Of a stretch of DNA of 45,812 nucleotides, positions 4,546 through 37,494 are shown piece after piece; the stretch's first letter is position 1; every line of letters starts with the position of its first letter. The notes below the pieces were generated by a model. It was given only the letters and a program-made list of their open reading frames with translations. It did not search any database and was not told the origin of the DNA. This DNA comes from a virus. Taxonomy: Duplodnaviria > Caudoviricetes. The stretch covers positions 1 to 45,812 of IMG/VR virus record IMGVR_UViG_3300033402_000513, one strand, 5' to 3'. The position numbers were made by a program, and so were the translations under genes.

Positions 4546-4554
4546 GAGATTCAC

Positions 4555-5582: not shown

Positions 5583-5607
5583 CGCGGGTGAAGCCGCCAC
5601 ACTGTTG

Positions 5608-5817: not shown

Positions 5818-5838
5818 TGTTCGTCTTTTCCTTTCTGC

Positions 5839-15629: not shown

Positions 15630-15680
15630 TCCCTTCCTTTTATCGATTCGAACCAAAAGCGTGACACACTGAAAGTACGG

Positions 15681-16706
15681 CTAGATCGGACCTTCTGAGC
15701 CCGGTTCGCCATTGTCGAACAACTTCCCCTGGATCGGTTTCGTCTGCGCCGCCCCTTGACGGGCGGCCTTTTGCCGTCTTTTTTCAATATACGGGTCGTA
15801 AACACGAGAGAGCATCTTATGTCTAAGTCTCGTAATCTGTCTTTGGTCGCCATTCTTGGAGTACCGGTAGATATCGAGCAGGCGCACGATATCCCCCCAA
15901 TAGTTTCCAAGGCTAAGGTCCCGGCCATCGAACAGGCCACGACGGATCGCGCTCTCTGCCTTCAATACTTGGCGAACTGCAGGCCACGGGTCCCCAAACG
16001 GCATCGGCGGCATGAGTACTGTCGATTGCCAACCTTCTTCGACGAAATGGCGAGCTTTCTCTCGGTCTTCCTCGTACAAATGAAGGCTTCCAACGGTGTG
16101 CCTATACGTGCCAAGTTCGACGCCTAAGGATCGGGCCATGATCTCTTGAAGCATGGTGAAGGCAAATACGTCGTGGGGCAGGCCCTTGAATGCGTCATTT
16201 GACCTCATGCTGGTTAACATGTGCAGCCGATGATCGCGCAGGATAAGTTGGAGTGTGCAAGTGCATGGAATGTCCTTGTGCGGTTCACCAAGATCAGCAG
16301 GATCGAATAATTGAATAACAGCGCGCCGGGATGTAGGCTTCGTTGTTAGCAGTTCTAGCACATTATGTACCTGATCGTTGCCACGCGCGTTGAAGAGCCG
16401 AGGTCCGTAAGCGCCGTGAATTGTTCGCCCATCGTCAGACTCCTCGGAATATCGCGACAAGTAGTATTTGATGAAGTGAACCTTGTTGCTTCCCGCCAAG
16501 TACCAAAACAGCTCGCCGAGACAACTGAAGAGGATGCCTCTTTTCTCGGTTCGGCTCAGGCGGGCTCTCGGGTCCCTGAGTTTCAACATGACACCTGTCA
16601 GTTCTGCCGTAGTCCCGCGAGTCGCGTCGATGCGGCGTTTCCTGCTAAGGAGTCGATTGATGACCTGGAGCAGAAGGTCATCCAGCGTCTTTTCGGATAT
16701 GTACAT
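15681..16706 (-). CDS. Thymidylate synthase-like pyrimidine (probably dCMP) hydroxymethylase/methylase
   Basis: SRRAVI, DIPCT (catalytic Cys), MRSND, GLPHD and GSLHLYE motifs. Confidence 0.88.
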   Translation of the reverse strand: MYISEKTLDDLLLQVINRLLSRKRRIDATRGTTAELTGVMLKLRDPRARLSRTEKRGILFSCLGELFWYLAGSNKVHFIKYYLSRYSEESDDGRTIHGAYGPRLFNARGNDQVHNVLELLTTKPTSRRAVIQLFDPADLGEPHKDIPCTCTLQLILRDHRLHMLTSMRSNDAFKGLPHDVFAFTMLQEIMARSLGVELGTYRHTVGSLHLYEEDREKARHFVEEGWQSTVLMPPMPFGDPWPAVRQVLKAESAIRRGLFDGRDLSLGNYWGDIVRLLDIYRYSKNGDQRQITRLRHKMLSRVYDPYIEKRRQKAARQGAAQTKPIQGKLFDNGEPGSEGPI

Positions 16707-16924: not shown

Positions 16925-19900
16925 ATGCCCGACACCATCGGCCGCATCACCGTCCCCACGGTGATCAACTCCGGCCAGACATTCCCGCTCACCACGCAGT
17001 ACCCGTTCGGCTTCTCCGTCGAACGCCCGGTGATCGTGCATCGCTTCGGCAGCCTCGACGCCAAGCAGGAGCAGCGTTACTACGTCGGGATCGGCCCACG
17101 CAAGTTTCAGTTCAAGCACCAGAACCTGAACTGGGCCGAAACGAACCAGCTCAAGGCGTTCTGGGAAGCCATGCAGGGGCCGTGGAAAGCGTTCACTTAC
17201 AACGTCCCCAACCCCGGCGGCACGACCACCGGCGTGCTGGTGACCTTCGAGCAGACGCCGATCTCGTTTGAATACCTGCGCAACGCGGTGCAGGTGGGAC
17301 TGAACCTCATCGAGGTTGTAGATCCAACGCAATCCCCTGCGTACACGATCAACTCCACCTGCCTGCGGTTCCCCTCTACCGCACTGTCCACGGCACTGCT
17401 TTCCGAAGTCCAGCAGATCGTCCCACTGGTGCACATCCGCGTGCGCGAATCTGCGGTCGCCGACATCTACGTCTCCGACCGTCGCGTCACGGTGGGCGGC
17501 CAGCTATACCTGCCGCGCCTGATCGGAATCGGCGAGCCTGGCTCCGACGTCCTGATTTCGCAGGACATCAAAGGCACCTCCGATAACGTCCGGTTCACCT
17601 TCGGCAACGGCGACCGCGTGATGACGCAACTCGCCAATGACACGGATCTGAAGTACGCCGAGATCGACCTCTGCCTGTTCCACGTCAATTCCGGAATTCT
17701 GCTGCAGCTTTGGAAAGGCGTCATCCAAAACTTCACCAGCGATGGAACGCCGATCTTCCCGGTAACGTGCTCCGACGGGTTCTTCCAGATCATGAACCAG
17801 TACCCGGAGCGGCAGCTCAGCCGCCAGTGCTGGAAGACCTACAACGATGGTGTGAACTGTCCGTGGACCACGAGAGGGCACAGCGCCGCGGCGGTGACTG
17901 CGGCGGGCGGCGATCCCACGACCTGCGACTATTATCTCGAATCGGCGAACGGTTGCCAGGTGCATGGCATGGCTCCCTACTTCGGCGCGCACCAGGCCGA
18001 CCCACAGGGCGTCGTCATCAAGGACGATTCAACCGGCTTCCTCGGCTTCGGACGCAACACAGTTACCGCGACTTCGATTGTTTCGGACACGATCTGGGGT
18101 CTGGCATTGCCCGAAATCTGGTGCAACAGCGGTGGAAACCCACTGTTCGCCTTCCTGGCCACGGCCTTGATGGTCGATTACCGCGACGAATCGGGCTATG
18201 CCGACTCGCTCGGCATTCTCAGTGCCGGGCCTCTCGGCGGATTCACCGCGTCGATGGTCGTCACCAACGCCGACGGCTACCGATACGTGGTCGCACCGAT
18301 GGTCGATGGCTACCTCTGGCAGGGCCTCAAGCTCGACGGCAACCTGAACGTCACAAAGTACCAGCCGGACATGGGGTTGCGCTACGTCACCGGCAGCGAC
18401 CCAGCGAATTCGAGCACCGACTATTTCTCGCTCGGCCAAGGGTCGCCGCAGGTCTGGGAGCCGAATGTTTACGCGGCGGGCACGGCAGCGTGCGAGATTC
18501 GCATCGTCAAGTCCACCACGATTCAGCCCAGCACTCCCGACCAGCACCAGATGACGGTCCCCATCGATTACGGGATGTGGGGCTGGACGTGGGACCAGAA
18601 CGGCAACCGGACGGCGATCAGAGGCCTCATCAATCCGTTCTGGATCGCCGTCAACATGCTGCTGCGCGCGATGGGTCTGTATGGCGATCCGTCCACCGGC
18701 TCGAATCCTGCCGGCGGAAGCGGCCCGACGTCGTTCGCGCAGCTCGCCACGTTCGTGCTGCCGTCGCTCATAGTGGGCGATGGAAGCGGTGCGGCCGAGA
18801 TCGCGGCTGACCAGGTCGCAGCCATCCTTGGTACCGGCGTGGAGACGCAGTTCCAGTTCCAGGGAATCATCAGCAGCCAGAAGCCGTTCCGCGACTGGCT
18901 CACCGAGGTGCTCAATTGCTGCTTGGGATTCTACACCTGGGAGTTCGGGAAGCTGAAGCTCGGATGCCGCATCAACGCCAGCGCGGTGGATGCATACACG
19001 CTCGCCAACTCTCTGTTTCAAAGCCTGCGGCTGACGCCGATTCAAGCCGGGTTCGAGCACTTGGTGCTTTCGTTCGCCGACGTCGCCTATCAATACCAGG
19101 CCAACACGGCAGAGTATTGCGATAAGAGCCACGCGGCGTATTACGGGCGCGGCGGATCTCCGCTCACCAGCCAAATGCATTCGGTGGGCTGTTCGACGCT
19201 GAGCCAGGCGTTGCGCATCGGAGCAACCCGCACGCGCGAAGAGATCGGCGGCGTGAATCCCGCCGAGTGGCGCGACGCGCGCAATGCCGCATGGCAGACC
19301 ACCCTGCTTGGTCTCGGCAACGAGGTCGGACAGGTGGTCTCGATGACGCATCCCGACATCCCCGGACTCCATGGGACATGCAACGTCACCGGCACCTCGG
19401 TCACTTGGGCCAGCGGCGATGCCTTCGACACGTCCATGCAGAACAAGGAGGTCGTGATCAACGGCGTGCAGGTGCTGATCACGGGCTACACGACGGACCC
19501 GACCTACCACACGGTAACCGGCTTGCTCCTGGCTTCGGCGCCGGGCAACGGAACCAATCTTCCGTTCCAAATTGTGACGATGTCCTTCAGGATTCAGCGA
19601 TGGAGCCTGAAGAAGGACTGGTCGGTGCAGATCGAGGGCCAGACCGTCACCGATTCCATGTACGACCTGGACGTGGGACCGAAGCCGATGGACGTCGTGC
19701 CCGGACCCCTGCCGCCCCTGTTCTATTCGATTCCGCTCGGGCCAGCGTGGGCACCATACCAAGTGGAGGCCGCAGCGAACGACGCGCTGTTTCCGGGCGA
19801 GTGGACCTTCGATACGAACCAGTCCTACGCGCAGATGGCCGACGGCAGCATGCTCGCGAACCTTGTGGTGACTGGGAAGCTGCCAGTTAACGAGTTCAGC

Positions 19901-21343
19901 GCAACTGGCGCGGGTGCGCCCGGAATTGGATCGATCTCGCAGTCCGCGACGGGCGGATCGTTGCCAGCGAACGTGACGTTGCGCGTTGCCATCTGTGCGG
20001 TCGATTCGAACGGGCTTCCTTCGGCTCCGTCGAACATCGCCATCATAGGGACCGGCGCGGCGGCGGGTGGCGCGTTCACACTGGAGAACATTACCTGGCC
20101 GGCGGTCGCGGGCCTCGTTTCCTACGTGTTGTTCGTGGCTACCCAGGACGATCTGATCTGCGCGCAGGCCACCGGAGCGCTGACAGCGGGTCCGAATAGC
20201 ACTTACACGCCTGGATCGATCACCTTCGGCGGGCCGTTGGTGCGCTCGACGTGGGCCCTGCCGTCGCCATACGTCAGCAAGGTCCGGCTGAAAGCCAAGC
20301 ATGAGATTCATGGCGGGATCATCGGCGCGCCCGTCGATAGCGTCTCAACCGGGGCGCTCGTGGTCGGGTACCTGAAAGGCAGCCCGCCATCCAGTAATCC
20401 TTCGTTCACGCCGGTGGGCCGCATCATCTCGATCATCGGCAGGCCGGAAAGTGCCACACCGTACTTCAGCGCAACGGTCACGTCGTGGGATTCCAGCACC
20501 GGAACCATCGGCGTCACTCCGGACCCCAACGGCATTGTGCAGTCGGGCGACTGCCTCGTCCTCCGGTTCAACGCCGATGCTTCGAACTCCGCGAACCCCA
20601 CATCCATAACGGACTCCGGGTGCCAGAACATCGCTTATCCCGGTGGTATGACACCCGGTGCGGAGGTGGGCAACCTGGTGCGAGTGATCAAAGGTGTCTC
20701 GCGCGGCACGCCGCCGCGGAAGATCACCGCGAACACGGCGATCACCATCACCTGGGACCTCCCCATGGTCATCAACCCCGGCGACGTGTGGATCATCGAG
20801 GAGCCGACGTGGCCGTACTCCTGCGACACAACCTCGCTCGATAACGGCAACCCGCTGGCGGTGACCACGATCAACATGCCCACCGGCAATTTCGTGGACG
20901 AGGCCCTCGTGATCGCGGGTTTTACGGTTGACGTGAACGGTAACGAATCGCCAGACGGTGATGCGCCGATCCGCGAGGACTGGGTGTTCGGCGCGGAAGG
21001 GCTCTCGAAGGTCGCTGGCCTCGTCTTTCAGATGCAGGGCACGCTTGGTGTGGAATCCAACGCCGCGCAGCCTCTCTATTTGAACCGCCCCGTCACTGTC
21101 GGTGACGTGAAGGCTTACGTCCAGGCCGCGCCCACCGGCGCGGCGATCACGTTCACGATCTACGTGGGCGGCTCCGCCTGGCTGACCTTGACCATTCCTG
21201 CCGGCCAGACGGCAGTGGTTGCCACTCCGTCGCAGGTCGGCGCTCTTACCGAGATCCCGGCGAACACGGCAGTCTCTATCGGCATTACGGCGGTCGGGAC
21301 AACGTTCCCCGGTTCGAACCTCTCGGTCTTCATCTACTCGTAA
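16925..21343 (+). CDS. Large tail tip/hub protein (Dit-like + gpL-like + gpJ-like fusion)
   Basis: 1472 aa; N-terminal LKAFWEAMQGPWKAFTY resembles Dit; Cys cluster CWKTY..NCPW..CDY..NGC; central tail-hub region; beta-rich C-terminus. Confidence 0.75.
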   Translation: MPDTIGRITVPTVINSGQTFPLTTQYPFGFSVERPVIVHRFGSLDAKQEQRYYVGIGPRKFQFKHQNLNWAETNQLKAFWEAMQGPWKAFTYNVPNPGGTTTGVLVTFEQTPISFEYLRNAVQVGLNLIEVVDPTQSPAYTINSTCLRFPSTALSTALLSEVQQIVPLVHIRVRESAVADIYVSDRRVTVGGQLYLPRLIGIGEPGSDVLISQDIKGTSDNVRFTFGNGDRVMTQLANDTDLKYAEIDLCLFHVNSGILLQLWKGVIQNFTSDGTPIFPVTCSDGFFQIMNQYPERQLSRQCWKTYNDGVNCPWTTRGHSAAAVTAAGGDPTTCDYYLESANGCQVHGMAPYFGAHQADPQGVVIKDDSTGFLGFGRNTVTATSIVSDTIWGLALPEIWCNSGGNPLFAFLATALMVDYRDESGYADSLGILSAGPLGGFTASMVVTNADGYRYVVAPMVDGYLWQGLKLDGNLNVTKYQPDMGLRYVTGSDPANSSTDYFSLGQGSPQVWEPNVYAAGTAACEIRIVKSTTIQPSTPDQHQMTVPIDYGMWGWTWDQNGNRTAIRGLINPFWIAVNMLLRAMGLYGDPSTGSNPAGGSGPTSFAQLATFVLPSLIVGDGSGAAEIAADQVAAILGTGVETQFQFQGIISSQKPFRDWLTEVLNCCLGFYTWEFGKLKLGCRINASAVDAYTLANSLFQSLRLTPIQAGFEHLVLSFADVAYQYQANTAEYCDKSHAAYYGRGGSPLTSQMHSVGCSTLSQALRIGATRTREEIGGVNPAEWRDARNAAWQTTLLGLGNEVGQVVSMTHPDIPGLHGTCNVTGTSVTWASGDAFDTSMQNKEVVINGVQVLITGYTTDPTYHTVTGLLLASAPGNGTNLPFQIVTMSFRIQRWSLKKDWSVQIEGQTVTDSMYDLDVGPKPMDVVPGPLPPLFYSIPLGPAWAPYQVEAAANDALFPGEWTFDTNQSYAQMADGSMLANLVVTGKLPVNEFSATGAGAPGIGSISQSATGGSLPANVTLRVAICAVDSNGLPSAPSNIAIIGTGAAAGGAFTLENITWPAVAGLVSYVLFVATQDDLICAQATGALTAGPNSTYTPGSITFGGPLVRSTWALPSPYVSKVRLKAKHEIHGGIIGAPVDSVSTGALVVGYLKGSPPSSNPSFTPVGRIISIIGRPESATPYFSATVTSWDSSTGTIGVTPDPNGIVQSGDCLVLRFNADASNSANPTSITDSGCQNIAYPGGMTPGAEVGNLVRVIKGVSRGTPPRKITANTAITITWDLPMVINPGDVWIIEEPTWPYSCDTTSLDNGNPLAVTTINMPTGNFVDEALVIAGFTVDVNGNESPDGDAPIREDWVFGAEGLSKVAGLVFQMQGTLGVESNAAQPLYLNRPVTVGDVKAYVQAAPTGAAITFTIYVGGSAWLTLTIPAGQTAVVATPSQVGALTEIPANTAVSIGITAVGTTFPGSNLSVFIYS

Positions 21344-24300
21344 TGGACCCGATCTACAAGCTGCAGCCGCATCGCACGATGGCGTTGCAGGGCTTCGACG
21401 ATTACGGCGCGGCAGCGGCACTTTGGGGCGCGTCCGACACCGGCTTCACCGTGTCGGGCGTGTTCCGCGACCTCGCCGATTTCGCTGTGCTGGTCCTGTT
21501 CCAGAAAGACGATCCGTTCGGCCACCCGCTGTTCTCGTATCTTCCGGATGGCGATCTGACGGGCCTCGTGCTCGATTTCGACGTCACCTGGCAGGGCATC
21601 CAGGCGTGGGAATCGCTCAAGAGCGCGTGGACGGATTGGAACACCCTCGACTACTCCGTCAACGGCGTCGGTCACACCGACGTGAAGTGGATTGGAACGA
21701 CGGGCATCACGATCACGTGCAACACGACTGGGCGCGCGGGGGCATCGGCCACCTTCACGCTCAACCAAACCAGCGCGCAGGCTGGCGACAAGGTCACGCT
21801 GTGGTATCAGAACCAGTCGTTCATCAGCCCAGCGATCATTCCCGGCAATCCGACCACCGACCAGGCTCTGTGGTGGCAGGGATCGGTGGCGACTACCGAC
21901 CAAGCGCTGTGGTGGCAGGGGAACGCGGCTTATAACCATTGGGTCAAGATCGGATCGAACACCTATTCCTGCCTCGAGGGATCGCTGAACAGCGCGGGTG
22001 TCGCGAGCAACGTCGCCGCCCAGATCAATGCCTCCGATCCAAATTGCTCCTGCACCACGGGAGGCGCCTATGGCAACGAGATCTTCATTGCGCTGAGGTC
22101 CGGTGAGTATGGCCCCGTGGCAGTGTCTAGCTCCGACGGCTCTGGGGGCACCACGCTGTCGAACTACCAGCACTGGGTGAAAATCAGCAGCGTCACGTAT
22201 TCCTGCTACGAAGGATCGCTGAACAGCGCGCAGATAGCGGCCAACGTCGCGGCGCAGATCAACGCTAACGACCCGAACTGCACGGCCACGGTGGGAGGCC
22301 AGTACAACAACGAGATCCTCATTACGCTGAAGGCCGGCGTCGCGGGCCCAATTGCGGTGTCGAGTTCGGATGGCTCCGCGGCTGCATCGCTGACGCAAGG
22401 CACGAGCGCGGCGACCATCCTGAACAACATCGCCGGCCAAATCAACGGAACGAACTGGGTGCTGAACGGCCCCGTCGTGCTCAGCGCCGCCGTGGTTGCG
22501 CCGAACCAGTTGGTGATCACGGCCGCGCCGGGAGCCGACGGCAACATGGTGGCGTTCTACCAGACGGACAACAACAGCAGCAGCCGTCTTTACTTCACCG
22601 CGAGCAACTGGAACCTGTCCGGCGGCTCATCGGATAACGTCTCGTGGCACGTTCACATCGATTTCACCGCCCTCGGTTGGAGCAATGTGGACAAGGTCTG
22701 GTGGACCATCGCTCCGGCGCTCCCGAACAGCCAGGCGTACCCGTCCACTGAGTGGAAGGTGGTGGTCACCAACTGGACGGTGACCAGCAGCCCGGCCAGC
22801 AAGCGCGCGCTCAAGGTGGCCGGACCCGGGTCGGTCCGCATCGAGGAAGACAGCACCTGGGCCACCACGTCCGGATACTGGGAACCCGCGCCAGGCAACG
22901 ACCCGGTGAACGGCGCATTCGCCTTCTGGAGCCAGGGGCGCGCGATTCGGGCGGCGGCTTCCGGGACCAGCGTCACCGTCGAGACGCACTGCCAGTACGC
23001 GCACTCCATCTACGTTGGCACGCGGCTAGATACCACCTGCGGCATCGTGACCGCCACGTTGGACGGAGGTGCGCCGGTGACGCTCGATTGTTATTACCCC
23101 ACCGCCACGACTTCCCAGACTCGACGCCTGCTCTTCTCCGGCGTTGCAGCAGGGCAGCACAAGGTGCTGATCACGCTCTCGGGCAATAAGAACGCTTCGA
23201 GCCAGGGCTGGTATTTCTATTTCGATTTCCTGGAATGCGCGGTGGCGAGCGACGTCCCCGATCCGGTGGCGACGACTACCGCCGTGGCGGTGGCCACCGA
23301 CTTCGACACGGACAACACCTACAAGCTGTCGCCGCAGAGGCTGGTGTGGAACATTCAGAAGCTCGGGCTGCTGGGCGAGATCGATCACTACTGCGGTGTC
23401 TTCTGGTGGAAGCAGTCGGTGGCGTCCAATCCCGCGTACCCCACATGCACGGTCACGTTCTCCGGCAATTGGAACGACCAGGATGTCATCTGGCTGCACA
23501 TTGGCGCCTCGGCTATCGGCAAGACAGTGTTCGGCGGCCAGGACAGCAGCAATACCATCGCGCGGCACTTCGCCAATTTCATCAACGCGATCTTTGACGG
23601 CGTCTGGGCCTCTGTCTCCGGCAGCACGCTGTCGGTAACTTCCCATTCGTTCGCGAGCGGTTGGCAGTATCACGTCTACACGGAACTGCCCGCGTCCAAT
23701 ACCGGCAGCGGCCACGCCGCGGTGACCGGCGACATGCAAGGCGGCACGTATGGCGTGAAGTGGGTCATCGATCCAACCCAGACGCCGGTGCTCAACCGGG
23801 CGTTCCGCGATTGGAACTCGGATTTCTTCAGCCTGCTCAAGGCGAACAACATGAGCGCGGTCTGCTCGTTCTCCCAGGAACTGGTGCAACCGCCGGATAA
23901 TCCTGCCGGTGGCGCTGTCTGGGTTCAACGCTTCCCCGACGGCACAGCGGTCGAAACCGCAACGGGATTCGGCACGTTGAACAGTTCGCAGATCGCCTTC
24001 AGCTCCGGGCCGCAGAACTACATGGGTCAAGCCTTCGCCGCGATGGCCGGCCTGATGCTGGCGGCAGGATTGACGCCCAAACTCCAGTTCGGCGAAATCC
24101 TCTGGTGGTTCCTGGCGAACGCGTCCGGGATGGCGTTTCACGACGCGGACACGCAGGCCGCCGCACAGTCGGCACTCGGCCGCGCGCTGGCGACCTTCCA
24201 CACGCCGAACGACGATCCCTCGCTCAACAGCTACGCCGACGCAAACTTTCTGCGGACGCGCCTGTACAACTACGTGGCCGCGATTCAGAGCTATGTTCTG

Positions 24301-24708
24301 TCGCAGTGCCCCTCTGCCGTGTTCGAACTGCTGTGGCCGATGGACGTGAACGATCCGGACAACTGCAAGCTGACGCGGTACATCAACCTGCCCTCGCAAT
24401 GGACGACACGCTCAGGCTCCGGCTTCGACACGTTCCTCATCGAGGGCTACCAATATCCGGGAATCAACCACAACCTCGACCAGGCGACCCGGTGCGCGCA
24501 GTACCCATGGAAGGAACTCTCCTGGGACCAAGCCCACTGCCGCTACTTGATGGGCCTGTACTACAGCACCTGGCCATGGATGCGTGAGTTCGTAAACGCC
24601 AGCCGTATTGGACCGCCGGCCATCAAGCTCTGGGCCTACGACCACGTGTGCCTGTTCGGATGGCCGCTACCGCTGCCCACGAGCGACGACAGCTCCTTTA
24701 TCTACTGA
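21343..24708 (+). CDS. Tail-associated/receptor-binding protein with internal repeats and a C-terminal TIM-barrel/glycosidase-like domain
   Basis: 1121 aa; TAATG coupling to the hub gene; Ser/Thr/Gly-rich repeats; LQFGEILWWF region in the C-terminal domain. Confidence 0.65.
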   Translation: MDPIYKLQPHRTMALQGFDDYGAAAALWGASDTGFTVSGVFRDLADFAVLVLFQKDDPFGHPLFSYLPDGDLTGLVLDFDVTWQGIQAWESLKSAWTDWNTLDYSVNGVGHTDVKWIGTTGITITCNTTGRAGASATFTLNQTSAQAGDKVTLWYQNQSFISPAIIPGNPTTDQALWWQGSVATTDQALWWQGNAAYNHWVKIGSNTYSCLEGSLNSAGVASNVAAQINASDPNCSCTTGGAYGNEIFIALRSGEYGPVAVSSSDGSGGTTLSNYQHWVKISSVTYSCYEGSLNSAQIAANVAAQINANDPNCTATVGGQYNNEILITLKAGVAGPIAVSSSDGSAAASLTQGTSAATILNNIAGQINGTNWVLNGPVVLSAAVVAPNQLVITAAPGADGNMVAFYQTDNNSSSRLYFTASNWNLSGGSSDNVSWHVHIDFTALGWSNVDKVWWTIAPALPNSQAYPSTEWKVVVTNWTVTSSPASKRALKVAGPGSVRIEEDSTWATTSGYWEPAPGNDPVNGAFAFWSQGRAIRAAASGTSVTVETHCQYAHSIYVGTRLDTTCGIVTATLDGGAPVTLDCYYPTATTSQTRRLLFSGVAAGQHKVLITLSGNKNASSQGWYFYFDFLECAVASDVPDPVATTTAVAVATDFDTDNTYKLSPQRLVWNIQKLGLLGEIDHYCGVFWWKQSVASNPAYPTCTVTFSGNWNDQDVIWLHIGASAIGKTVFGGQDSSNTIARHFANFINAIFDGVWASVSGSTLSVTSHSFASGWQYHVYTELPASNTGSGHAAVTGDMQGGTYGVKWVIDPTQTPVLNRAFRDWNSDFFSLLKANNMSAVCSFSQELVQPPDNPAGGAVWVQRFPDGTAVETATGFGTLNSSQIAFSSGPQNYMGQAFAAMAGLMLAAGLTPKLQFGEILWWFLANASGMAFHDADTQAAAQSALGRALATFHTPNDDPSLNSYADANFLRTRLYNYVAAIQSYVLSQCPSAVFELLWPMDVNDPDNCKLTRYINLPSQWTTRSGSGFDTFLIEGYQYPGINHNLDQATRCAQYPWKELSWDQAHCRYLMGLYYSTWPWMREFVNASRIGPPAIKLWAYDHVCLFGWPLPLPTSDDSSFIY
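21853..22404 (+). repeat. In-frame tandem duplications in the tail protein
   Basis: 39-bp unit (TTDQALWWQG, twice, at 21853 and 21892) and 234-bp unit (HWVKI...SCxEGSLNSA...VSSSDGS, twice, at 21937 and 22171). Confidence 0.9.
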
Positions 24709-25136
24709 CGTCAGTGCAACGATCCGAAGAACTGATACGTGCCCACGTGGGCGTCGCGGACGGCGCTCGTCGCGGGCCGGAATCGCCTGCACGTTCGTGA
24801 GTCTTCGCAAAAGCACGATGTCGTTATCCTCCACCCACTCCCCGCAACCGTAGTCCCATTTCATACACGGCGAATCGCGAGGTCACTGCACCGACCGCGG
24901 CCATCGCCGATTCCAGTTGTCCCTCTCCCATCGCTCTTGCCGTCCTCCCCGTTTACCCCAAGTGCGTCGGCTGAACGCATGACCGCGACGCCGTAAGCCA
25001 TCCCCATGTTGGTCGGGCTCACCGCGTTCTGCTAATCTAGCCTGCAAGCCGCCCAGTCCTTCTTTGATTCACCAGGGCGAAGGCTGGAACGTATTCCAGC
25101 AACCGGCGGCTTCAGGCAGGGAATCGCCGAGGAGCG

Positions 25137-27347
25137 ATGCCGACCCAACTACCGGAAGACGCGCGGCGAAGACTCGAAGCAGGCCAGGGCGACTTGCGCG
25201 ACCGCTGCTGGCAGAACGTTCAGCGACTTCACAAATGGTCGGGCAAGTTGGAGAGGGATGGTCCTTCCGGCGAGGACGCCGACTACTACGAGTCCATGGG
25301 GCCGCGTTCGCTGTTTCTAGGCCCGATTGTGTGGGATGGGCCGACGGATAAGCGAAAGTTGGGCTGGGACGAGATCACGGCTGCACTCCGTTTAAAGGTC
25401 CACGATTTATTGGGGCGCTACGCACGTGAACTCGCGGCGTTGGCTGGTGGGGAGTGGTGGTCCCTGGGGTTGACGGGCGCGGAATTCGAGTCGCGGATGG
25501 CTGCCGTTCTCCAGTCCGTTCTCGCTGACCTGAAAAACGTCGCCAAGGACGCGGACTCAGATCTCGGACTGGACTTGGAGATCGAACCGCTGGTGGCGGA
25601 CCTGAGTACTGGCCTGCAGGCGTGGTGCGATGACTACGTGGAGCGGTATGGCGCACATGCCGGGCTTTACGGAACGGCAGAAACCGGCAACGATGCGCCA
25701 CCGGGAGCCCGGCAGGCAGGCGCATCGTCTCTGAAAGATCGATTGCGCGTCACGTCGATTGACGGCTCGGTTCGGTGGATCAATCCTGAGGGCTCCGATC
25801 CTGAGGCGAGCATTTGGACGCCCGAAGACGAGAAGCGCATCTCAGCATGCGTGTTCGACGGCCGGGCGGCAGTTAGAAACGAACTGGAAGGCATCTTCTC
25901 CGGAAAAGAGTGGCCCGCGCTGGCGGCTCTCGTCGAACCCTTCCGGCGCTATGCGGTCGCGGTCTTTGATGTTTACGCCTCAGCCTATAGCCATGTGGCC
26001 CGAACGTTGGCAGCCTACCAGGAAGCACTCGATCAACTACTGCTTCCGATGGTGCTCAGGGATCTCTTCGGTCGCGAGTGGGACCGCTGCCCCGGTGAGA
26101 AGGTAATACGGATGCTCTGGCAAGATGGGCCGGACGGAAAACCCGAGGGCCGAGAGGTTGCCGTAGTGGCGGGAAATGACCCGGACCCGACCTGTGTCTT
26201 CTACGATTTGCTGAGCAATGCAATTGAACACCGATTCCGTTTCTTTGAACCGTTGCCGCCGCCCGCGCCGGGGGAGCCGCCGGGTATCAATCTGACGAAC
26301 CTGGAATGGTGGCAGTACATCGGGCTGAGCGAACGGCACAGCCTCGCGATGGCTATCAAGCCATACATAGAAGACCGAGTTGCACACTGGCGATTCATTT
26401 ACTCTCCGACCACGCCACCAGACTCCGCTAACACTCGCGGCGCAGCGCAGGGCGATTTGGCGCAACAGCCGGAGCATCCAGACTCGGGAGCGGTCAGGCC
26501 CCCAGCGTCAATGGCTGCTCGGGTGTCATCGTCGAGCGAAGCGAGGTCGATGGATTCGCCAACCAGGGTCAAATTCGAAACTGGGCTGGCGCTTGCCGAG
26601 GTGACGTTGGCTCAGGATTTGAAGGACCTCGGTCCGAGCTTGGAGATTGCGCGAAAGTATGTTACCAGCGCGACGCTGACTTTAGCCCGGTGTATTCTGA
26701 CTCCGGACTGCGCGGAGCCATACGAGGCAATCCGGCGGGCCTACGATTTCGCAGAGTGGTTCGCCGCGGAAACAATGAAGACGGCATGGGTCTGGCTGTG
26801 CGTCTTCTCAGAGATGAACACATCGGGTAAATTGGAAAAACACAAACGCGAGGGAAGGACGGAGGACGGCGCGCCCAAGGGGATGACCGAGGCTGAACTG
26901 CGCGAATGGCATGGATGCCTCTCCGGGGTCGCCCAGGAGGCCCTGGACGAGTTCGTCCCTGAGTTCTGGAAGGAACGGCTCAAGTACTTCTCGGGCATTG
27001 CCGGCGGAGGCGCGCCGACTGAATCGGAAACTCCGAGAGCAACCGAGGACCGCCGGGACCCAGACGCGTCGGTACAAGAACCGTCTGCTTCGCCCGTCGA
27101 TTCCGATGTGCCACGACAGGATCGCACCAAGCCGCGACCGGGCAAGGAGCGGAAAGGCGACGCCTCCCTGCTGGCGGGCAAGCGCGCGGTCAACTTTAGG
27201 ACAGCAGAACAGTACCTTGGCCTCACGGAGCGCCAACGGCAGAATCTCGTTAGGGACCAGATACTGATCGTTGAAGGAAAGGGTCAGAACAAGAAAATCA
27301 CGACCGATTCCCTCAGAGCTTACCTGCCGCCAGAAAACCCGAACTAA
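25137..27347 (+). CDS. Large hypothetical protein with C-terminal Xis/MerR-like HTH
   Basis: 736 aa; GAGGAG RBS; C-terminal VNFRTAEQYLGLTERQRQNLV...ITTDSLRAYL. Confidence 0.7.
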   Translation: MPTQLPEDARRRLEAGQGDLRDRCWQNVQRLHKWSGKLERDGPSGEDADYYESMGPRSLFLGPIVWDGPTDKRKLGWDEITAALRLKVHDLLGRYARELAALAGGEWWSLGLTGAEFESRMAAVLQSVLADLKNVAKDADSDLGLDLEIEPLVADLSTGLQAWCDDYVERYGAHAGLYGTAETGNDAPPGARQAGASSLKDRLRVTSIDGSVRWINPEGSDPEASIWTPEDEKRISACVFDGRAAVRNELEGIFSGKEWPALAALVEPFRRYAVAVFDVYASAYSHVARTLAAYQEALDQLLLPMVLRDLFGREWDRCPGEKVIRMLWQDGPDGKPEGREVAVVAGNDPDPTCVFYDLLSNAIEHRFRFFEPLPPPAPGEPPGINLTNLEWWQYIGLSERHSLAMAIKPYIEDRVAHWRFIYSPTTPPDSANTRGAAQGDLAQQPEHPDSGAVRPPASMAARVSSSSEARSMDSPTRVKFETGLALAEVTLAQDLKDLGPSLEIARKYVTSATLTLARCILTPDCAEPYEAIRRAYDFAEWFAAETMKTAWVWLCVFSEMNTSGKLEKHKREGRTEDGAPKGMTEAELREWHGCLSGVAQEALDEFVPEFWKERLKYFSGIAGGGAPTESETPRATEDRRDPDASVQEPSASPVDSDVPRQDRTKPRPGKERKGDASLLAGKRAVNFRTAEQYLGLTERQRQNLVRDQILIVEGKGQNKKITTDSLRAYLPPENPN

Positions 27348-31127: not shown

Positions 31128-31414
31128 GCGGCCTTCCGCGGCCTGTCGATCTAACCCAGGTGCCAGCGGTCCCATGGGCGTGGGTCGATGAGCGCGTATA
31201 CGCCGCCATCCGGGCGTGCAGCGTTAAAGTGCTCCAGAACGAACGGCGGTTAAACATCGGCTGCCCGTTCCGGCGCATCAACGGCACGACGGTTCGGTAT
31301 AAGTTCGGGGACATCATGGCCTTTCTGGAATCACAACCGGGCGGCGGTGGCACCGCAGAGCCGAGCCATAAACCGCAGCGTGGATCTGGCCAGCCGCGCA
31401 AATCTTCGACTTGA
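31124..31414 (+). CDS. Second Xis-like HTH protein
   Basis: SVKVLQNERRLNIGCPFRRINGTTVRYKFGDIMAFL resembles the 27460 protein; ATGA overlap with the helicase. Confidence 0.7.
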   Translation: MSGLPRPVDLTQVPAVPWAWVDERVYAAIRACSVKVLQNERRLNIGCPFRRINGTTVRYKFGDIMAFLESQPGGGGTAEPSHKPQRGSGQPRKSST

Positions 31415-32607
31415 CTGTTTCGCAACGCAAGACCCTCATGGGGTCGAGGCAATTTCGCCACATGTGCGTTTTCAAAAACGGAGCGTTCTACCATTACGAG
31501 TTCACCCTGGACGGGCGGCGGCACCGTGGGTCCACCGGCACGGCGGATAGGGACGAGGCGGTAAGGGAGGAAAGCCGTCAGCGGGAGCGCTTGGAGAAGA
31601 GCTATGGCCAGGTCATCGAGGAGGAAGCCCGCAAGCAGCGCCGGAAAACGATTCAGCAGGCAGCAGATGAATTCCTCGCCGACTACAAATTGAAACACGA
31701 ATCCGGGACGTTCGCGGAGTATGCTCTGGGACACGTAACGGACCACCTCGGCAAGAGGCTCGTCGTGGAGATCACGCCGACGGTCGTGAAACGCTACCAG
31801 ACAGATCGTCTCGCGGCGAAGGCCGGTCCCAAGACCATCAACGACGAAGTGCTGCTGCTGTTGCGGCTGTGCGGCGACCAGGGAGATCTGATCCGCGCGA
31901 AATTGCGCCGAGAAAAGGCGATGAAACTCGCCCTCCCGCCGTCGCCCGGACGCGCATACACCGCCGACGAGAAGGCGCGCATGCTCGCGGAAGCTGCGAA
32001 GCTGCGGAGCAAAAACATGTACCCCGCCCTCGTCGTGGATCTGAATTGCGGCCTGCGCGACAAGGAGTTGCGCGAACTCCAGTGGCGGCAGATCGACCTC
32101 GTCCATAAAAAGCAGCTCACCGTAGGCAAATCAAAGACCGACGCCGGTACGGGCCGCGTGATCCCGCTGAACGATACGGTCATGATCGCCCTTGAGGCGC
32201 ACGCCGCGTGGTACATCCGGCGGTTCGGTGAGTGCAAGCCGGAGTGGTTTGTCTTCCCCGCCGGGAAGGGCCAGCCGAACGATCCCACCCGCCCCGTAAC
32301 GACGTTGCGGACGGCGTGGACCAAGGTCCGCGACAAGGCGAAGGTGGTCGGACGGTGGCACGACAACCGGCACACGCTGGTAACGGAGCTTTCCGAATCG
32401 GGCGCGGGCGACGAGGTGATCATGAGTATCGCCGGGCACGTCTCGCACGCCATGCTTTCGCGCTACTCCCACGTGCGAATGGAAGCCAAACGGCGAGCCC
32501 TTGACGAGATCGCCGCACGCCAGAGAACCGCCGACGAGAAGCGCCGGGAGGAAGCCGAGCGGCAACAGCATGCTGGGGCAGCTTCTCAATCGATGGTGAT
32601 ACAGTAA
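31411..32607 (+). CDS. int: Tyrosine recombinase/integrase
   Basis: GLRDKE (R), KSKT (K), HDNRH, AGH and RY catalytic residues; N-terminal arm-binding region; true start may be ATG 31438 or 31462. Confidence 0.95.
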   Translation: MTVSQRKTLMGSRQFRHMCVFKNGAFYHYEFTLDGRRHRGSTGTADRDEAVREESRQRERLEKSYGQVIEEEARKQRRKTIQQAADEFLADYKLKHESGTFAEYALGHVTDHLGKRLVVEITPTVVKRYQTDRLAAKAGPKTINDEVLLLLRLCGDQGDLIRAKLRREKAMKLALPPSPGRAYTADEKARMLAEAAKLRSKNMYPALVVDLNCGLRDKELRELQWRQIDLVHKKQLTVGKSKTDAGTGRVIPLNDTVMIALEAHAAWYIRRFGECKPEWFVFPAGKGQPNDPTRPVTTLRTAWTKVRDKAKVVGRWHDNRHTLVTELSESGAGDEVIMSIAGHVSHAMLSRYSHVRMEAKRRALDEIAARQRTADEKRREEAERQQHAGAASQSMVIQ

Positions 32608-32632: not shown

Positions 32633-32638
32633 TATAAT
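32633..32638 (+). promoter_or_regulatory. Consensus -10 element for the cargo operon
   Basis: TATAAT 25 bp upstream of ATG 32663; no clear -35. Confidence 0.5.
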
Positions 32639-32662: not shown

Positions 32663-33343
32663 ATGCCACTAACGTCGATGCACGTCCTCGCTGGCGTGCA
32701 CACGGCAGGAAAGACCAGCCTAGGTCTCCGTCTCCAGGAAATCGGTTACGATTTCTTCCCTGAGGTCGCGATGGAGTCAATCGCCGGACTCTCTCCATGG
32801 GAATTGGGTCCGTCCTTCGACGAGTCCGTGATTGCCGAGGAGCTTGCACGAGATTCCAAGCTTCGAATGCACCGGCAACCGCTATTTGTTGAAACGTGGC
32901 ATATAGGAAACCTGGCATATGCTCGGGTCCGGAATCCATCTGTGGCGCTCAAGTATGAAGCGCGAGTCCGCGCCCACGTCTCCGAGTTCAGTCCGCTCGT
33001 GTACTTCCTAGACTTGAAAGTCGATCTCTTGCGTGAACGGACGGCATATTTCACGCACGAGTCCGACAGGACGAAAGCTGTCAGCTTTTATTCCCATGTA
33101 CGCCGTGAGTTTTTTGAGACGTTCGGTCTTCTGCATGTCAGCCCCATCATCGTCGATGCGTCAAGAGACTTCGCCTCCGTTCTTGGGACGATACTGCAAC
33201 ACGAAGAACACCACTGCGCTATCAGCTCTCGTAGTAAGGGGCCGGAGGGTTCCGGTGGAGGACTTCCGCGGGAGGCAAATGGGAGAGATCGCGAACAGCG
33301 TCCGACCGCACCGGACCAAATCAATGAGGGTGGCGCAAAATGA
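32663..33343 (+). CDS. P-loop nucleotide kinase-like protein (AAA_28/NMP kinase-like)
   Basis: Walker A GVHTAGKTS, LFVETWHIGNLAY, VYFLD; ATGA overlap with the next gene. Confidence 0.75.
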   Translation: MPLTSMHVLAGVHTAGKTSLGLRLQEIGYDFFPEVAMESIAGLSPWELGPSFDESVIAEELARDSKLRMHRQPLFVETWHIGNLAYARVRNPSVALKYEARVRAHVSEFSPLVYFLDLKVDLLRERTAYFTHESDRTKAVSFYSHVRREFFETFGLLHVSPIIVDASRDFASVLGTILQHEEHHCAISSRSKGPEGSGGGLPREANGRDREQRPTAPDQINEGGAK

Positions 33344-33888
33344 ATGCGAAGCACTATACAAAGCAGGGGCTTGAGCTAAAGCAGCGACAAATCAAGGCAC
33401 AGGAAGTCAAGGTTCGGGCCATTGGCAGGGAAGCTGGCGATGAGGCAGGATTGAACTGCGATTGGCATGATAACTTTGGCTACGAGGATGCCAAACGTAG
33501 GCTAGAAATGGAGTCCGCACTCCTGCGAAAGCTCCGAGAGGATACTGATGGAGCACAGGTCATCACCGTGGAGGAGCAGTCCGAACGTGTTGGAATAGGG
33601 ACCACCGCAAAGATACTATTCAATGGCGAAGACAGAGAGATTACGCTAGGCGGTTTCGGCGAATCCGATGCGGCTATTGGGCTCCTCTCATATACCAGCC
33701 CATTAGGCCGCGTGCTGTTGAACATGAGAGAGGGAGATTCGAAGACTGCAAACATTGTGGGCAAGCCGACTGAAATCGAAGTGGTTGACATTCGGCCGCC
33801 ATCATACCGGTACAACGGATTGATTGCCAAACTTCTCGCCGACGTCTCGAATACTGGAGAGGAGGAGACCAAGAATCTGAGTAAGTAG
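33340..33888 (+). CDS. GreA/GreB family transcription factor (variant)
   Basis: N-terminal TKQGLE coiled coil, tip CDWHDNFGY (cf. GDLxENxEY), VGIGT, and LSYTSPLGRVLLNMREGD. Confidence 0.88.
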   Translation: MNAKHYTKQGLELKQRQIKAQEVKVRAIGREAGDEAGLNCDWHDNFGYEDAKRRLEMESALLRKLREDTDGAQVITVEEQSERVGIGTTAKILFNGEDREITLGGFGESDAAIGLLSYTSPLGRVLLNMREGDSKTANIVGKPTEIEVVDIRPPSYRYNGLIAKLLADVSNTGEEETKNLSK

Positions 33889-33909
33889 GTTTTTGGCTGG
33901 AAACGCTCA

Positions 33910-34491
33910 ATGATCTCACAGACAGTTCCCTCAATCGGCAGTAAGCACAAATTGATCGTAGTTGAAGGCATCGACGGGACCGGCAAGACGACAGTTGCTC
34001 ATAGACTGGCCCGGGTGATTGGTGGGAAGTACATCAGGACGCCGCCCCCACCGTTCGACTCGGCTCGGCAGTATGTCGACAAACAAGGAAGCTTAGACAC
34101 GCGCTTTCTGTTTTATTTGTGCTCGGTGTCTTATGCTTCCGATGTAATTCGCCGCGAATTGGCGAAGCGTGATGTAGTCTGTGATCGATACCTTGGCAGC
34201 ACGATTGCCTATCACCGTGCACTCGGTATCCGACTCGACTGGAACATGGAAGAATTGACCCTTGTCGCACCGGACTACGCGTTCCTACTCGAGGTCTCGG
34301 ACGAATCTGAGCGAATGAAGCGAATCCGACGCCGGCGCCGGATCACGGCCGGTGACCGACTTCTGGAAGACGAACAATTGCGGAAGAGAATGGTGTCTGA
34401 ATTCGAGAGATTCCAGTGGATTAAGGTCGATACCGCGAAGCGGAACGCTGACGAAGTCGTTGAGTGGATAAGGGGCGCGCTCAAAGGGTAG
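33910..34491 (+). CDS. Thymidylate kinase family NMP kinase (CMPK2-like)
   Basis: VEGIDGTGKTT, RTPP, RFLFY and CDRYLGSTIAY motifs. Confidence 0.88.
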   Translation: MISQTVPSIGSKHKLIVVEGIDGTGKTTVAHRLARVIGGKYIRTPPPPFDSARQYVDKQGSLDTRFLFYLCSVSYASDVIRRELAKRDVVCDRYLGSTIAYHRALGIRLDWNMEELTLVAPDYAFLLEVSDESERMKRIRRRRRITAGDRLLEDEQLRKRMVSEFERFQWIKVDTAKRNADEVVEWIRGALKG

Positions 34492-34519
34492 CCGTGCCGA
34501 TGCGCTATTAAGGAGAATC

Positions 34520-36058
34520 ATGCCTGAGTATAGTCATTCTGACCGCGATATCGAACGCGAGTTTCGGCTGTACCGGGACCTCTATCAATTGCCAGTGCAG
34601 CACTGTGTTTCCGAAAACACGCCGGGCCCATTCTTGGAGTACTGTCAGAGAAGGCGATTCTTTGTAATAGTTTTCGTCTACGCGGCTGGCTACCGGACGT
34701 ACGTCATTCCGGCTCTGGTTGCTGCCGAGACTGTGAGACTTGACCAAGTGTTTACGGTCACGTCTGGAAGTGAGATCCTCACCGCACTTGGCAGCTTAGT
34801 TGCGAGTTCTAGAGCTGCGGCTGGTCCGGGAGGTTCTGTCCCGCTTTCTGGTTCCACTGTACCGAATACGGGCGGAATGTTCGGCGAAGGGCCGGGCAAA
34901 CCTTGCAGGTACCGTCTTCCAGCCGGCGCGATAAAGCTCTTCTCTCTGCGCGAGTGCGTTCTGGAAGCGGTTCGTAGGATCGCGGAAAAGGAATTTAAAG
35001 AATTGGGATGCGTTTCGATTGGCGAGATTACACCCTTGGTGTACCTGCAAAATCACTTTTTTCATGGCTCTACCTATCACGCTCACGATGGAATCGGTTT
35101 CATGTGCAGGGTGCAAATGCCGACATCGAAAGCGCTTCACTCGCGGGAGGCGGAGCGGGTTAGAATCACGGAGGCCGATATTGGGTCCATCGAGGACCGG
35201 TTCATTTTGGGGGGAGACAGGCACGTCTTCGAATACGCCAAGAAGAAGTTGAAGTACACACTTACCGAGGACCATGACGAAGAGATTGCAGCTAGTCATG
35301 CCGTCACGGGATTAATCAAGTTCCACAACATTTTCGTCAAGCCATTGTTCCGACTGTTTGGGAGGGGCGGGGCAAAGCGGTTCGTCATCAGCGAGGTTGA
35401 GAAGACGGTCGCCGGATCAAGCAGTGGGTGCAGGTTTCTGGACATCTCGTGTGGCGAGGACAAGTTCTTGTTCGACATACAGGCGAGACTGCCCCGTGGC
35501 AGCGTCATTGTAGGAAATGACGTAGCGTGGGATTCGATCAATGTGCTGATGAAGCACAAGTTGCGAAACAGAATACCCAACGTCTATTTCACGAATCATT
35601 CGTCGAGTGATGCACCGTACCAAGCAGAGGCTTTTGATATTAGCGTCTGCAAGAACTCGCTGCACCACATGAGAGATTACAAGGAAGCCGTCGAGACGAT
35701 TAAGAACTTGGTGCGTGTGACCAAGCACAAGGTCATTGTCGTAGACTACGAAGACCCCCGGAAAACAGGCTGGATGCCTCTTCTGTTCAATCTCTACTAT
35801 AGATACGTTCTGCGTGATCAGGGAGCGAAGTTTCTCACCGCCGATGAGTTTCGCCGCCTATTCGAGGAGGAGCATGGAGTCAAGGAAATCCTCAGAACCA
35901 GGCGCTTTACTGTGAGGATTGGCGCTCAGAAATCGAACTTCGGGAACGCAATGTGGGCTGTGCTGGAACGAGAGGGCGCCGCAGAAGGGCCGAGCAAGGG
36001 GGGTGTTCTGCCAGATGGCGACAGGGTCCCCCCAGAGTCCCCCCAATTGACGCGATAA
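34520..36058 (+). CDS. Fusion protein: N-terminal degenerate Nudix-like domain + class I SAM methyltransferase
   Basis: C-terminal FLDISCGE, VGND, AFDISVCKNSLHH, VRVTK; N-terminal LPAGAI...E.VLEAVRRIAEKE resembles a Nudix box; AAGGAG RBS. Confidence 0.72.
   Translation: MPEYSHSDRDIEREFRLYRDLYQLPVQHCVSENTPGPFLEYCQRRRFFVIVFVYAAGYRTYVIPALVAAETVRLDQVFTVTSGSEILTALGSLVASSRAAAGPGGSVPLSGSTVPNTGGMFGEGPGKPCRYRLPAGAIKLFSLRECVLEAVRRIAEKEFKELGCVSIGEITPLVYLQNHFFHGSTYHAHDGIGFMCRVQMPTSKALHSREAERVRITEADIGSIEDRFILGGDRHVFEYAKKKLKYTLTEDHDEEIAASHAVTGLIKFHNIFVKPLFRLFGRGGAKRFVISEVEKTVAGSSSGCRFLDISCGEDKFLFDIQARLPRGSVIVGNDVAWDSINVLMKHKLRNRIPNVYFTNHSSSDAPYQAEAFDISVCKNSLHHMRDYKEAVETIKNLVRVTKHKVIVVDYEDPRKTGWMPLLFNLYYRYVLRDQGAKFLTADEFRRLFEEEHGVKEILRTRRFTVRIGAQKSNFGNAMWAVLEREGAAEGPSKGGVLPDGDRVPPESPQLTR
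36027..36045 (+). repeat. Putative integrase arm-type sites left of the att core
   Basis: TCCCCCCA at 36027 and 36038 (11-bp spacing). Confidence 0.6.
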
Positions 36059-36114
36059 TCAGTTTTTCGCGCCTCTAAGTGGTTGTGTTTGCAATGCGAG
36101 GCGGCTACAACCGT

Positions 36115-36164
<50 letters not shown>

Positions 36165-36247: not shown

Positions 36248-36309
36248 TTACCCATCCTTACCCGAATTTACCCAAACGTGGACGGCTGAATCCCCCCAGT
36301 TTCCCCCCA
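36248..36309 (+). repeat. Phased TTACCC repeats and a second TCCCCCCA pair right of the att core
   Basis: TTACCC at 36248, 36258 and 36268; TCCCCCCA at 36291 and 36302. Confidence 0.65.
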
Positions 36310-36454: not shown

Positions 36455-37070
36455 TCAATTCAGTTTCCACAGCGGCTTCGGCCACCGAAACGGCGGGTCC
36501 GGCTTGACGTACCCATACGGGACGTACCGTGGTTGTGGCGCGGATTTCGTGTCAATGATCGACGGCGGGCTCACCTTTAGGGGATCGAGCCGGTCGGCTT
36601 GGTGCGCCGCCCAGACCAGCCAGTCGCCGAACGCTGCGCCGGGTTCCACCGCCTGGCCGTCTGCCAGTGCGGTCTCCCTGGCGGCCGCGACCAGCCCGCG
36701 AATTCGTTCCGCTCGCTCCAGGTTCGTGGCGGCCCGATGCAACGCTCGCACGCGCGCCTCTTCCTGCCTGATCTGTTCCGCCCGGTGCGCACGTTCCGCG
36801 GCGATACGCTCAGCCTCGGCCTTTTCCGCCGCGCGCCCCCTTACGGCTTCCAGATCTGAAGTGACAGTCGGCCGGACAACTCATACCGGTACGGCTTGCC
36901 GCCGTATGTGAGTACCCGTTCCAGCACGCCGCCCTTCGGCGGGGATGTGAGGTCGATGCGATCTACTTTCTCCAGGATCGCGAAGCCGATCTCCTGCCCG
37001 TAGAGGGTTGCCACAGTCTTTTCTCGGCATCCATTGGCGACGGTGACCTTGAACCCTTCCTCTTCCAGCG
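36455..37070 (-). pseudogene. Broken hypothetical gene of a type often found beside integrases
   Basis: Two frames (LEEEGFKV...LSLQIWKP* and EQIRQEEARVRAL...WAAHQADRLDPL) separated by a stop and frame change; no intact start. Confidence 0.55.
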
Positions 37071-37176
37071 ACCACGTCGGCACTCGATAGCGACCCTGGC
37101 GCAGCATCGGCCGGACGGCCAAGTCCGCAAACAGAAGAGTTGGCACCGCCACATCTGGCCAAGCCTGTAACGTTTG

Positions 37177-37202
37177 GGGTTCGATTCCCGTTAGCGCTAC
37201 CA
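37177..37202 (+). other. Second tRNA 3' fragment (T-loop to CCA, possibly tRNA-Glu); putative att
   Basis: GGGTTCGATTCCCGTTAGCGCTACCA with no 5' half upstream. Confidence 0.65.
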
Positions 37203-37494
37203 TGTTTTCATAGAGTTACGGGCCTAAAGGGACGCCAGGGGACGACGCGCAACGCGCCAGAAGAAAACTCGCGCGGGTCTGGCGTCCCTGGCCGAGTGAG
37301 ATCCAAATCTACGCGGTCGCAAGCGCGGCACCTATCTGGTCAACTTCCCACATGGACTTCGGGACCGCGTGGGTTCACTTCTACGGATGGGCGCTAGTTA
37401 ACGTGGGGCTGGTCGGATTCAATGCCCTGCTACAGCGCCGTTGGGCGCCTTGCGGGCCACGCCGGTGCAACCGGCCTTCGCCCCCGCCGACAGG

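Follow-up and report, generated by a model that had tools for sequence, protein, structure and literature searches.

What might a prophage gain from carrying a Gre-type transcription factor in one cassette with two nucleotide kinases and a methyltransferase? We addressed this question for four open reading frames, ORF1 to ORF4, that lie beside the integrase gene in a viral sequence of 45,812 nucleotides (IMG/VR record IMGVR_UViG_3300033402_000513; the window, by which we mean the whole of this stretch). They encode a P-loop kinase (K1), a Gre-family protein, a second kinase (K2) and a Nudix-fold domain fused to a class I S-adenosylmethionine (SAM) methyltransferase; coordinates are given in Table 1. 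We conclude that the methyltransferase-kinase-Gre core is a horizontally moved accessory cassette that recurs in unrelated bacteria. For its function we offer a proposal, in which the cassette would make an antiviral nucleotide analog and the Gre protein would protect the host.

Recurrence of the core in unrelated bacteria

Searches with the Gre alignment as bait returned 32 loci, and 26 related loci remained once 2 self matches, 1 duplicate and 3 distant matches had been dropped; partner genes were called by profile searches and cross-checked with Pfam. Gre and a methyltransferase stand together in 18 of the 26, and methyltransferase and kinase are both present in 13. A gene of the Nudix-methyltransferase family adjoins the Gre gene, or lies one gene away, in 13 loci: it is complete in 8 of these; in L003 and L008 it is split, in L002 it is truncated and lacks the methyltransferase half, and in L010 and L021 the contig end cuts it. 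In L008, Gre and methyltransferase are both broken. Five loci have instead an unrelated fusion of about 700 residues (methyltransferase, unknown middle part, kinase), whose methyltransferase has only the fold in common with that of the Nudix fusion (hhalign probability 17%); the profile for this fusion was built from the same five loci in which it was found. Three kinase families alternate, namely K2, an AAA_17/18 kinase and K1. The K2 type adjoins Gre and the Nudix-methyltransferase in 5 of the 26 loci, and in L123; the AAA_17/18 kinase, which is like the kinase part of the PADLOC dCTPase model, takes its place in 3; and a homolog of K1, 47% identical, occurs in one (L013). On 2 short contigs a kinase is the sole partner. 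The presence of two unrelated methyltransferases and three alternating kinase families points to selection on the functional combination. An earlier annotation of this DNA, made from its letters (the first-pass annotation), had proposed that failure of the four genes to co-occur elsewhere would refute its reading; what recurs is Gre with a methyltransferase, usually with a kinase, whereas the exact four-gene set is found in none of the 26 related loci, among which gene order differs.

The hosts include a Bryobacteraceae metagenome-assembled genome (MAG; Acidobacteriota), Patescibacteria and an alphaproteobacterium, besides unassigned contigs. The Gre subfamily was absent from 300 other genomes of the L002 phylum, searched at E 1e-40, and from 400 other Patescibacteria genomes, searched at E 1e-30. 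The G+C content (GC) of the cassette is at least 3 points under that of its flanks in 10 of 14 cassette loci, and genes for integrase, ArdC or conjugation lie beside 6 of the 10 Nudix-methyltransferase loci with at least 2.4 kb of flank, a count that has no control set. Because the Gre tree is mostly unresolved (4 of 23 branches starred), we claim no order of events.

Relatives were also sought with other baits. A Nudix-methyltransferase profile run against 401 Patescibacteria genomes gave one new full-length homolog and one partial match to the methyltransferase alone (L121). The contig of the new homolog holds, in order, a TMPK-like kinase, a K2-type kinase, a Nudix-methyltransferase-CYTH fusion (the CYTH domain is fused in L120) and a Gre-like gene. 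This Gre, whose tip differs, belongs to another subfamily; it reaches 47.7 bits with the profile of the cassette Gre, where full-length members score 157-293. The locus is one case, unselected for Gre. An overlapping genome sample gave the same methyltransferase match (G390) again, and neither 301 genomes from the L002 family nor 6 from the L004 phylum added a full-length match. We saw no intact methyltransferase without Gre, although Gre had served as bait for all but one of the loci. When viral contigs were scanned with K2 as bait, 77 loci were kept, and one non-self locus had a Gre-like neighbor. This is phage contig L043 (6013-7917), where a K2-type kinase (42% identity), a radical SAM enzyme and a short Gre-like gene lie in overlapping order with replication genes around them; the radical SAM enzyme is a weak pVip match (E 3e-12).

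Several related stretches deserve separate mention. The methyltransferase-kinase fusions lie at 704-2767 in L005, 5849-7972 in L006, 2552-4741 in L012, 5739-7946 in L022 and 1861-4068 in L024; their middle part, about 350 residues long, has no Pfam match and carries an invariant WxxREGxExYFY motif. In L012 (1-6031) there are two DWHDNF-type Gre genes, a metallophosphoesterase, the fusion, which comes after the second Gre, and a ThiC-family radical SAM gene. An Acinetobacter plasmid stretch (L119, 4155-6989) has a K2-like kinase with a radical SAM-type gene on either side; PIN and AAA ATPase genes lie upstream, and there is no Gre match. The low-GC contig L030 (5328-8034) has a distant Gre-like match that is bordered by a TMPK fragment on one side and a CYTH gene on the other. 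In L004, PDC-M11 A and B (B being ASCH) and a further AAA_17 kinase occupy 3461-5927, about 1.5-4 kb upstream of the kinase-Gre-methyltransferase cassette.

An accessory Gre paralog and its partner enzymes

ORF2 is a Gre-family protein by Pfam (GreA_GreB, E 1e-12) that falls under all NCBIfam greA and greB cut-offs (59 bits against 139 for TIGR01462; 29 against 171 for TIGR01461). All six of the bacterial genomes with a cassette Gre that we checked have a canonical greA, above cut-off, elsewhere. On these two grounds we rejected ORF2 as the housekeeping GreA. The cassette Gre is an accessory second paralog, rare, mobile and enzyme-linked, unlike housekeeping factors, which upholds the first-pass description of a dedicated Gre protein. 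Like GreA and GreB, it has a full-length coiled coil whose tip acids, D41 and D44, align with D41 and E44 of E. coli GreA, and it keeps N45 and Y48; unlike them, it carries bulky aromatics in a DWHDNF tip. The tip, D41-W-H-D44-N-F-x-Y48, is unchanged in 41 of 41 aligned homologs (43 were found and 2 short ones left out) and also contains a near-invariant C. The subfamily profile scores 45 bits with GreA, 37 with GreB and 21-23 with Gfh1.

The family and structure matches of the four proteins agree with the first-pass assignments: two P-loop kinases, a Gre-family protein and a Nudix-like/SAM methyltransferase. K1 has the P-loop GVHTAGKT; its Pfam match to AAA_28 is weak (E 0.002, under the cut-off), and it is clear by Atlas (feature score 0.95, TM 0.72). 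K2 matches Thymidylate_kin in Pfam (E 2e-23). It had been called CMPK2-like, and the VakA match (E 2e-13) taken alone favors that name, but PDC-M51B, a model without a curated cut-off in the PADLOC library, scores higher (E 4e-32, 168 of 191 positions). Homologs of K2 also match PDC-M51B best (E 4e-32 to 2e-40, K2 of the window included), and INPHARED phages gave no K2 match.

The N-terminal domain of ORF4 matches 2w4e (Z 13.3, root-mean-square deviation [rmsd] 2.4, 123 aligned; VIA structure search), and all 50 structure matches listed for it have the Nudix fold; by its pLDDT profile it contains a low-confidence insertion of about 60 residues. Set against the Nudix box consensus Gx5Ex7REUxEExGU, all 17 sequences have a non-acidic residue directly after the box arginine; in the EE pair the first position is acidic in 1 of 17 and the second in 11. 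Atypical Nudix enzymes with activity exist, and ORF4 may thus still be active. The C-terminal domain has a Rossmann-like fold with motif I and an acidic motif II (D308, S310, G312, N333 and D334 are invariant in 11 of 11). It matches Pfam Methyltransf_31 (E 3e-9) and, in the VIA search, YcgJ (Z 18.8, rmsd 3.5, 182 aligned), with Hen1 at rank 9 (Z 17.4). Protein-database searches gave 2 ORF4 homologs among the best 8000 candidates, and a search with one Nudix-methyltransferase homolog matched nothing in PLSDB plasmids or INPHARED phages.

Three known systems were considered as identities for the cassette and rejected. Like pVip with a VakA/CMPK2-type kinase, it has a VakA match in ORF3 and, as far as excerpts of the viperin literature go, would share the proposed logic of a modifying enzyme and a linked nucleoside monophosphate (NMP) kinase leading to an antiviral nucleoside triphosphate (NTP) analog. 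Unlike pVip, it has a Nudix-fold/SAM methyltransferase where viperin has a radical SAM enzyme (Pfam and PADLOC give no Radical_SAM or pVip match in the four genes), together with a dedicated Gre paralog and a second kinase, neither of which is mentioned in those excerpts. With PDC-M51 it shares the PDC-M51B match of ORF3, and PDC-M51A has no match in the 12 window proteins or 30 related-locus proteins scanned; the PDC-M51A model (420 positions) matches an unrelated multi-copy family, and no paper on PDC-M51 was found by full-text search, whose reach ends short of PADLOC candidate tables. Kongming (KomA deaminase, dead HAM1 KomB and SIR2 KomC) is similar in joining a base-modifying enzyme, nucleotide kinases and a degenerate sanitizer fold. 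The cassette, in contrast, encodes its kinases and has a Gre protein where Kongming has an NADase, and no deaminase, HAM1 or SIR2 is found in its four genes by Pfam, PADLOC or NCBIfam.

The first-pass annotation had not recognized the combination as a described system, and full-text literature searches, with most subscription papers outside their reach, likewise found no methyltransferase-kinase-Gre module. What comes closest is the naming of TPR-GreA/B-PIN among anti-phage systems in the part of PMC9503650 available to us. In the corresponding parts of three other texts, GreA does not occur as a whole word (the 2026 review PMC13276650) and is not mentioned (PMC9226505 and PMC5512222).

What the cassette might do

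Our preferred reading, put forward tentatively and with somewhat less than even confidence, is that the cassette makes a methylated nucleotide analog that stalls phage polymerases, while the Gre paralog shields host RNA polymerase, in line with the first-pass proposal. The methylated nucleotide, the antiviral effect and the Gre rescue are all features that we infer. The methyltransferase of ORF4 would methylate a nucleoside or nucleotide, and its degenerate Nudix domain would serve as a nucleotide-binding module and not as a standard hydrolase. K1, which is nucleoside-kinase-like, and K2, which is NMP-kinase-like, would phosphorylate the product as far as the diphosphate, and the last step would fall to host NDK. 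The resulting triphosphate would be a poor or terminating polymerase substrate, and the Gre paralog, with its aromatic DWHDNF tip, would stimulate cleavage of analog-ended transcripts in multisubunit RNA polymerase. Single-subunit T7-type polymerases are predicted to be hit and the host to be spared, as would the resident prophage if it depends on host RNA polymerase. Two unrelated methyltransferases, three kinase families and an optional CYTH domain converge on Gre, and the simplest reading of this convergence is a free-nucleotide product that reaches RNA polymerase.

There are precedents for individual steps. According to the accessible portion of PMC3499576, most ribonucleoside analogs are excised from Pol II transcripts by TFIIS and the single-subunit enzyme POLRMT stays sensitive; its Discussion speculates that proofreading factors aid cell survival of ribonucleoside analogs. 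Excerpts of PMC6821320 report that oxazinomycin arrest at a single site is relieved by GreA, and viperins often occur linked to CMPK2-type kinases, as stated in an excerpt of bioRxiv 2023.09.13.557418.

A number of observations weigh against the proposal. In the same excerpts, 2'-C-methyl analogs are removed slowly by TFIIS (PMC3499576), and GreA fails to relieve arrest at oxazinomycin runs (PMC6821320). The second tip acid of the cassette Gre is Asp, as in the inhibitor Gfh1, and Gfh1 and Rv3788 inhibit despite acidic tips (PMC4598747, as excerpted); an acidic tip therefore cannot tell a rescuing Gre from an inhibitor. The hosts already have GreA, and a rescue role would require a special property of the cassette Gre. 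A partner enzyme is missing in 6 of the 26 Gre loci, 3 of them on contigs under 2.5 kb. L003, on a 2.8 kb contig, falls in a MAG that is labeled as an archaeon and lacks canonical greA; if this bin is right, rescue of bacterial RNA polymerase cannot apply there. Many small-molecule methyltransferases tie in the fold search, from which no substrate of ORF4 can be read. Finally, linkage of the cassette to defense islands, for which the first-pass annotation had suggested a check, is weak: PADLOC found a complete candidate system (PDC-M11A and B, in L004) near just 1 of 17 loci, in a scan of 102 hand-picked neighboring ORFs that also gave partial SIR2 and Fic matches in L011, and housekeeping genes surround 4 of the 5 fusion loci.

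The ambiguity of the Gre tip bears on a different explanation, which we regard as unlikely: nucleotide-signaled shutdown, whereby the enzymes would make or read an unusual nucleotide, the Nudix domain would sense it, and a Gfh1-like Gre would halt host transcription and abort infection. A Nudix box that is degenerate in 17 of 17 sequences would suit a sensor, and the D-x-x-D tip, with its invariant W, H and F, is like that of Gfh1; Kongming, which combines nucleotide kinases with a catalytically dead sanitizer as sensor (excerpts of bioRxiv 2024.12.20.629578), and the TPR-GreA/B-PIN systems are parallels. The Gre profile, however, is nearer to GreA and GreB than to Gfh1, and N45 and Y48, lacking in Gfh1, are kept. 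Moreover, the sensor-like Nudix domain is fused to the methyltransferase and not to Gre, and the enzyme-free Gre of six loci would fit a protective gene better than a toxic effector.

Protection could also be directed against an analog made by others. Such a resistance cassette, guarding transcription against a nucleoside analog from competitors or from other defense systems, is improbable in our estimation. Its steps would be methylation or phosphorylation of the analog, hydrolysis of its triphosphate by CYTH and clearance of stalled RNA polymerase by Gre. The CYTH fusion in L120, the small number of defense neighbors and the presence of the module in Patescibacteria, which are thought to scavenge nucleotides, all count in its favor, as does the fact that Nudix, CYTH and Gre are clean-up folds. 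Nevertheless, kinases of the TMPK/dNK type normally activate nucleoside analogs and do not detoxify them, the K2 type also sits with viperin-like radical SAM enzymes, which make analogs, and the Nudix box is degenerate.

Because Gre and methyltransferase genes are adjacent nearly always, we also considered methylation of a macromolecule, which could be an RNA end, RNA polymerase or the Gre tip; the cassette would in this way tune transcription in its host on behalf of the mobile element. The tied fold matches include Hen1 methyltransferase domains (Z 17.4), and the Gre tip offers an invariant H and W and the near-invariant C. This idea leaves unexplained the kinases of three families and the CYTH domain beside both methyltransferase types, and we consider it quite improbable. 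Still more remote is a role in phage DNA modification, with the kinases as a source of modified dNTPs alongside a thymidylate synthase/aGPT-Pplase3 cassette at 13891-16706. This suggestion draws on the presence of two cassettes with alike GC at third codon positions (GC3, about 0.6) on one prophage and is made very unlikely by the absence of that cassette's three genes from every related locus (tblastn), by the absence of the Gre subfamily from the other viral contigs searched and by the lack of a role for a Gre factor in DNA modification.

If the cassette does make an antiviral methylated nucleotide from which Gre rescues the host, a natural antiviral nucleotide analog would be reached by a route other than viperin. 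Within the scope of our searches, the cassette would also be the first defense system to rely on a transcript-cleavage factor for self-immunity. It would then provide a direct test of the speculation in the excerpted PMC3499576, and it could yield a new analog as well as a Gre variant specially suited to cutting out modified nucleotides. If one of the other explanations holds, the cassette would still be a new nucleotide module linked to RNA polymerase. A broader generalization, which we hold to be possible and rather doubtful, is an undescribed class of conflict systems that join a nucleotide-modifying enzyme (methyltransferase, radical SAM or others) to swappable kinases and a purpose-built Gre proofreading factor. 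In such systems a natural methylated chain-terminating NTP would kill single-subunit phage polymerases, and transcript cleavage would immunize the cell's own RNA polymerase.

Prophage setting and layout of the cassette

Table 1. The cassette and adjoining features, in coordinates of the window
Feature	Position	Strand	Details
Tyrosine integrase of the prophage (context, outside the cassette)	31411..32607	+	Pfam Phage_integrase E 6e-19; PHROG 1 E 8e-41
TATAAT hexamer, candidate -10 box of the cassette promoter	32633..32638	+	sole + strand copy in 45.8 kb
ORF1 (K1), AAA_28/dNK-like P-loop kinase, accessory part	32663..33343	+	226 aa; alternative start 32678
ORF2, accessory Gre-family factor, core part	33340..33888	+	182 aa
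ORF3 (K2), TMPK/viperin-associated-kinase-like NMP kinase, core part, exchangeable with other kinase families	33910..34491	+	193 aa
ORF4, Nudix-fold domain and class I SAM methyltransferase	34520..36058	+	512 aa; AAGGAG ribosome site
ORF4, N-terminal Nudix-fold domain, degenerate Nudix box	34520..35263	+	
ORF4, C-terminal class I SAM methyltransferase	35264..36058	+	motifs LDxSxG, ND, FTNH, KNxLHH
tRNA-Asn 3' fragment (anticodon arm to CCA), likely right attachment (att) end	36115..36164	+	ARAGORN; Rfam 22.4 bits

The window, a single virus record, contains genes for capsid, primase, UvrD and integrase; host-type genes, such as a GH31 hydrolase, appear past about 37.5 kb. ORF1 to ORF4 are co-directional, and ORF1 and ORF2 overlap by ATGA. 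The cassette genes have a GC of 0.52-0.56 and a GC3 of 0.58-0.63, and GC3 is 0.79-0.86 in 6 of 7 phage core genes measured and 0.69 in the seventh. ORFs and GC3 thus bear out the original picture of four linked, lower-GC genes behind a TATAAT box, between the integrase and a probable att site. The hexamer was not called by a sigma-70 promoter scan of the window, because it has no -35 match.

ARAGORN calls a whole tRNA-Asn at 36088-36164, with an Rfam fit of 22.4 bits against a cut-off of 29. We rejected the whole tRNA, since its 5' side is mismatched and the fit is confined to the stretch that runs from the anticodon arm to CCA. This 3' fragment is likely to be one att end of the prophage. A search of the window found no long direct repeat that would mark the two ends; the partner site would lie outside the window, and the att status is therefore inferred. 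Short repeats occur near the site at 36028, 36248-36268 and 36292-36303, and the final 25 or so codons of ORF4 run into these att-side repeats (CCCCCCAG at 36028).

A second tRNA-like 3' end (T-arm to CCA) lies at 37177-37202, about 1 kb beyond the tRNA-Asn fragment, with gene remnants ahead of it at 36455-37203. Beside the integrase of L002, at 11549-11573 of that locus, there is a near-identical stretch. The second 3' end is likely to be the att scar of another element.

Elsewhere in the prophage, the low-GC cargo cassette at 13891-16706 is on the - strand (GC3 about 0.6) and is convergent on an HTH-IrrE gene at 12781-13881. Its genes encode a thymidylate synthase-like protein (341 aa), an unknown protein of 275 aa and an aGPT-Pplase3/ADDT protein (E 9e-102), and it has the look of a module that modifies nucleotides or DNA bases. 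Three large phage ORFs in 16925-27347 (1472, 1121 and 736 aa) are almost without family matches; the product of 1121 aa has the sole one, to a non-contractile tail sheath TIM barrel.

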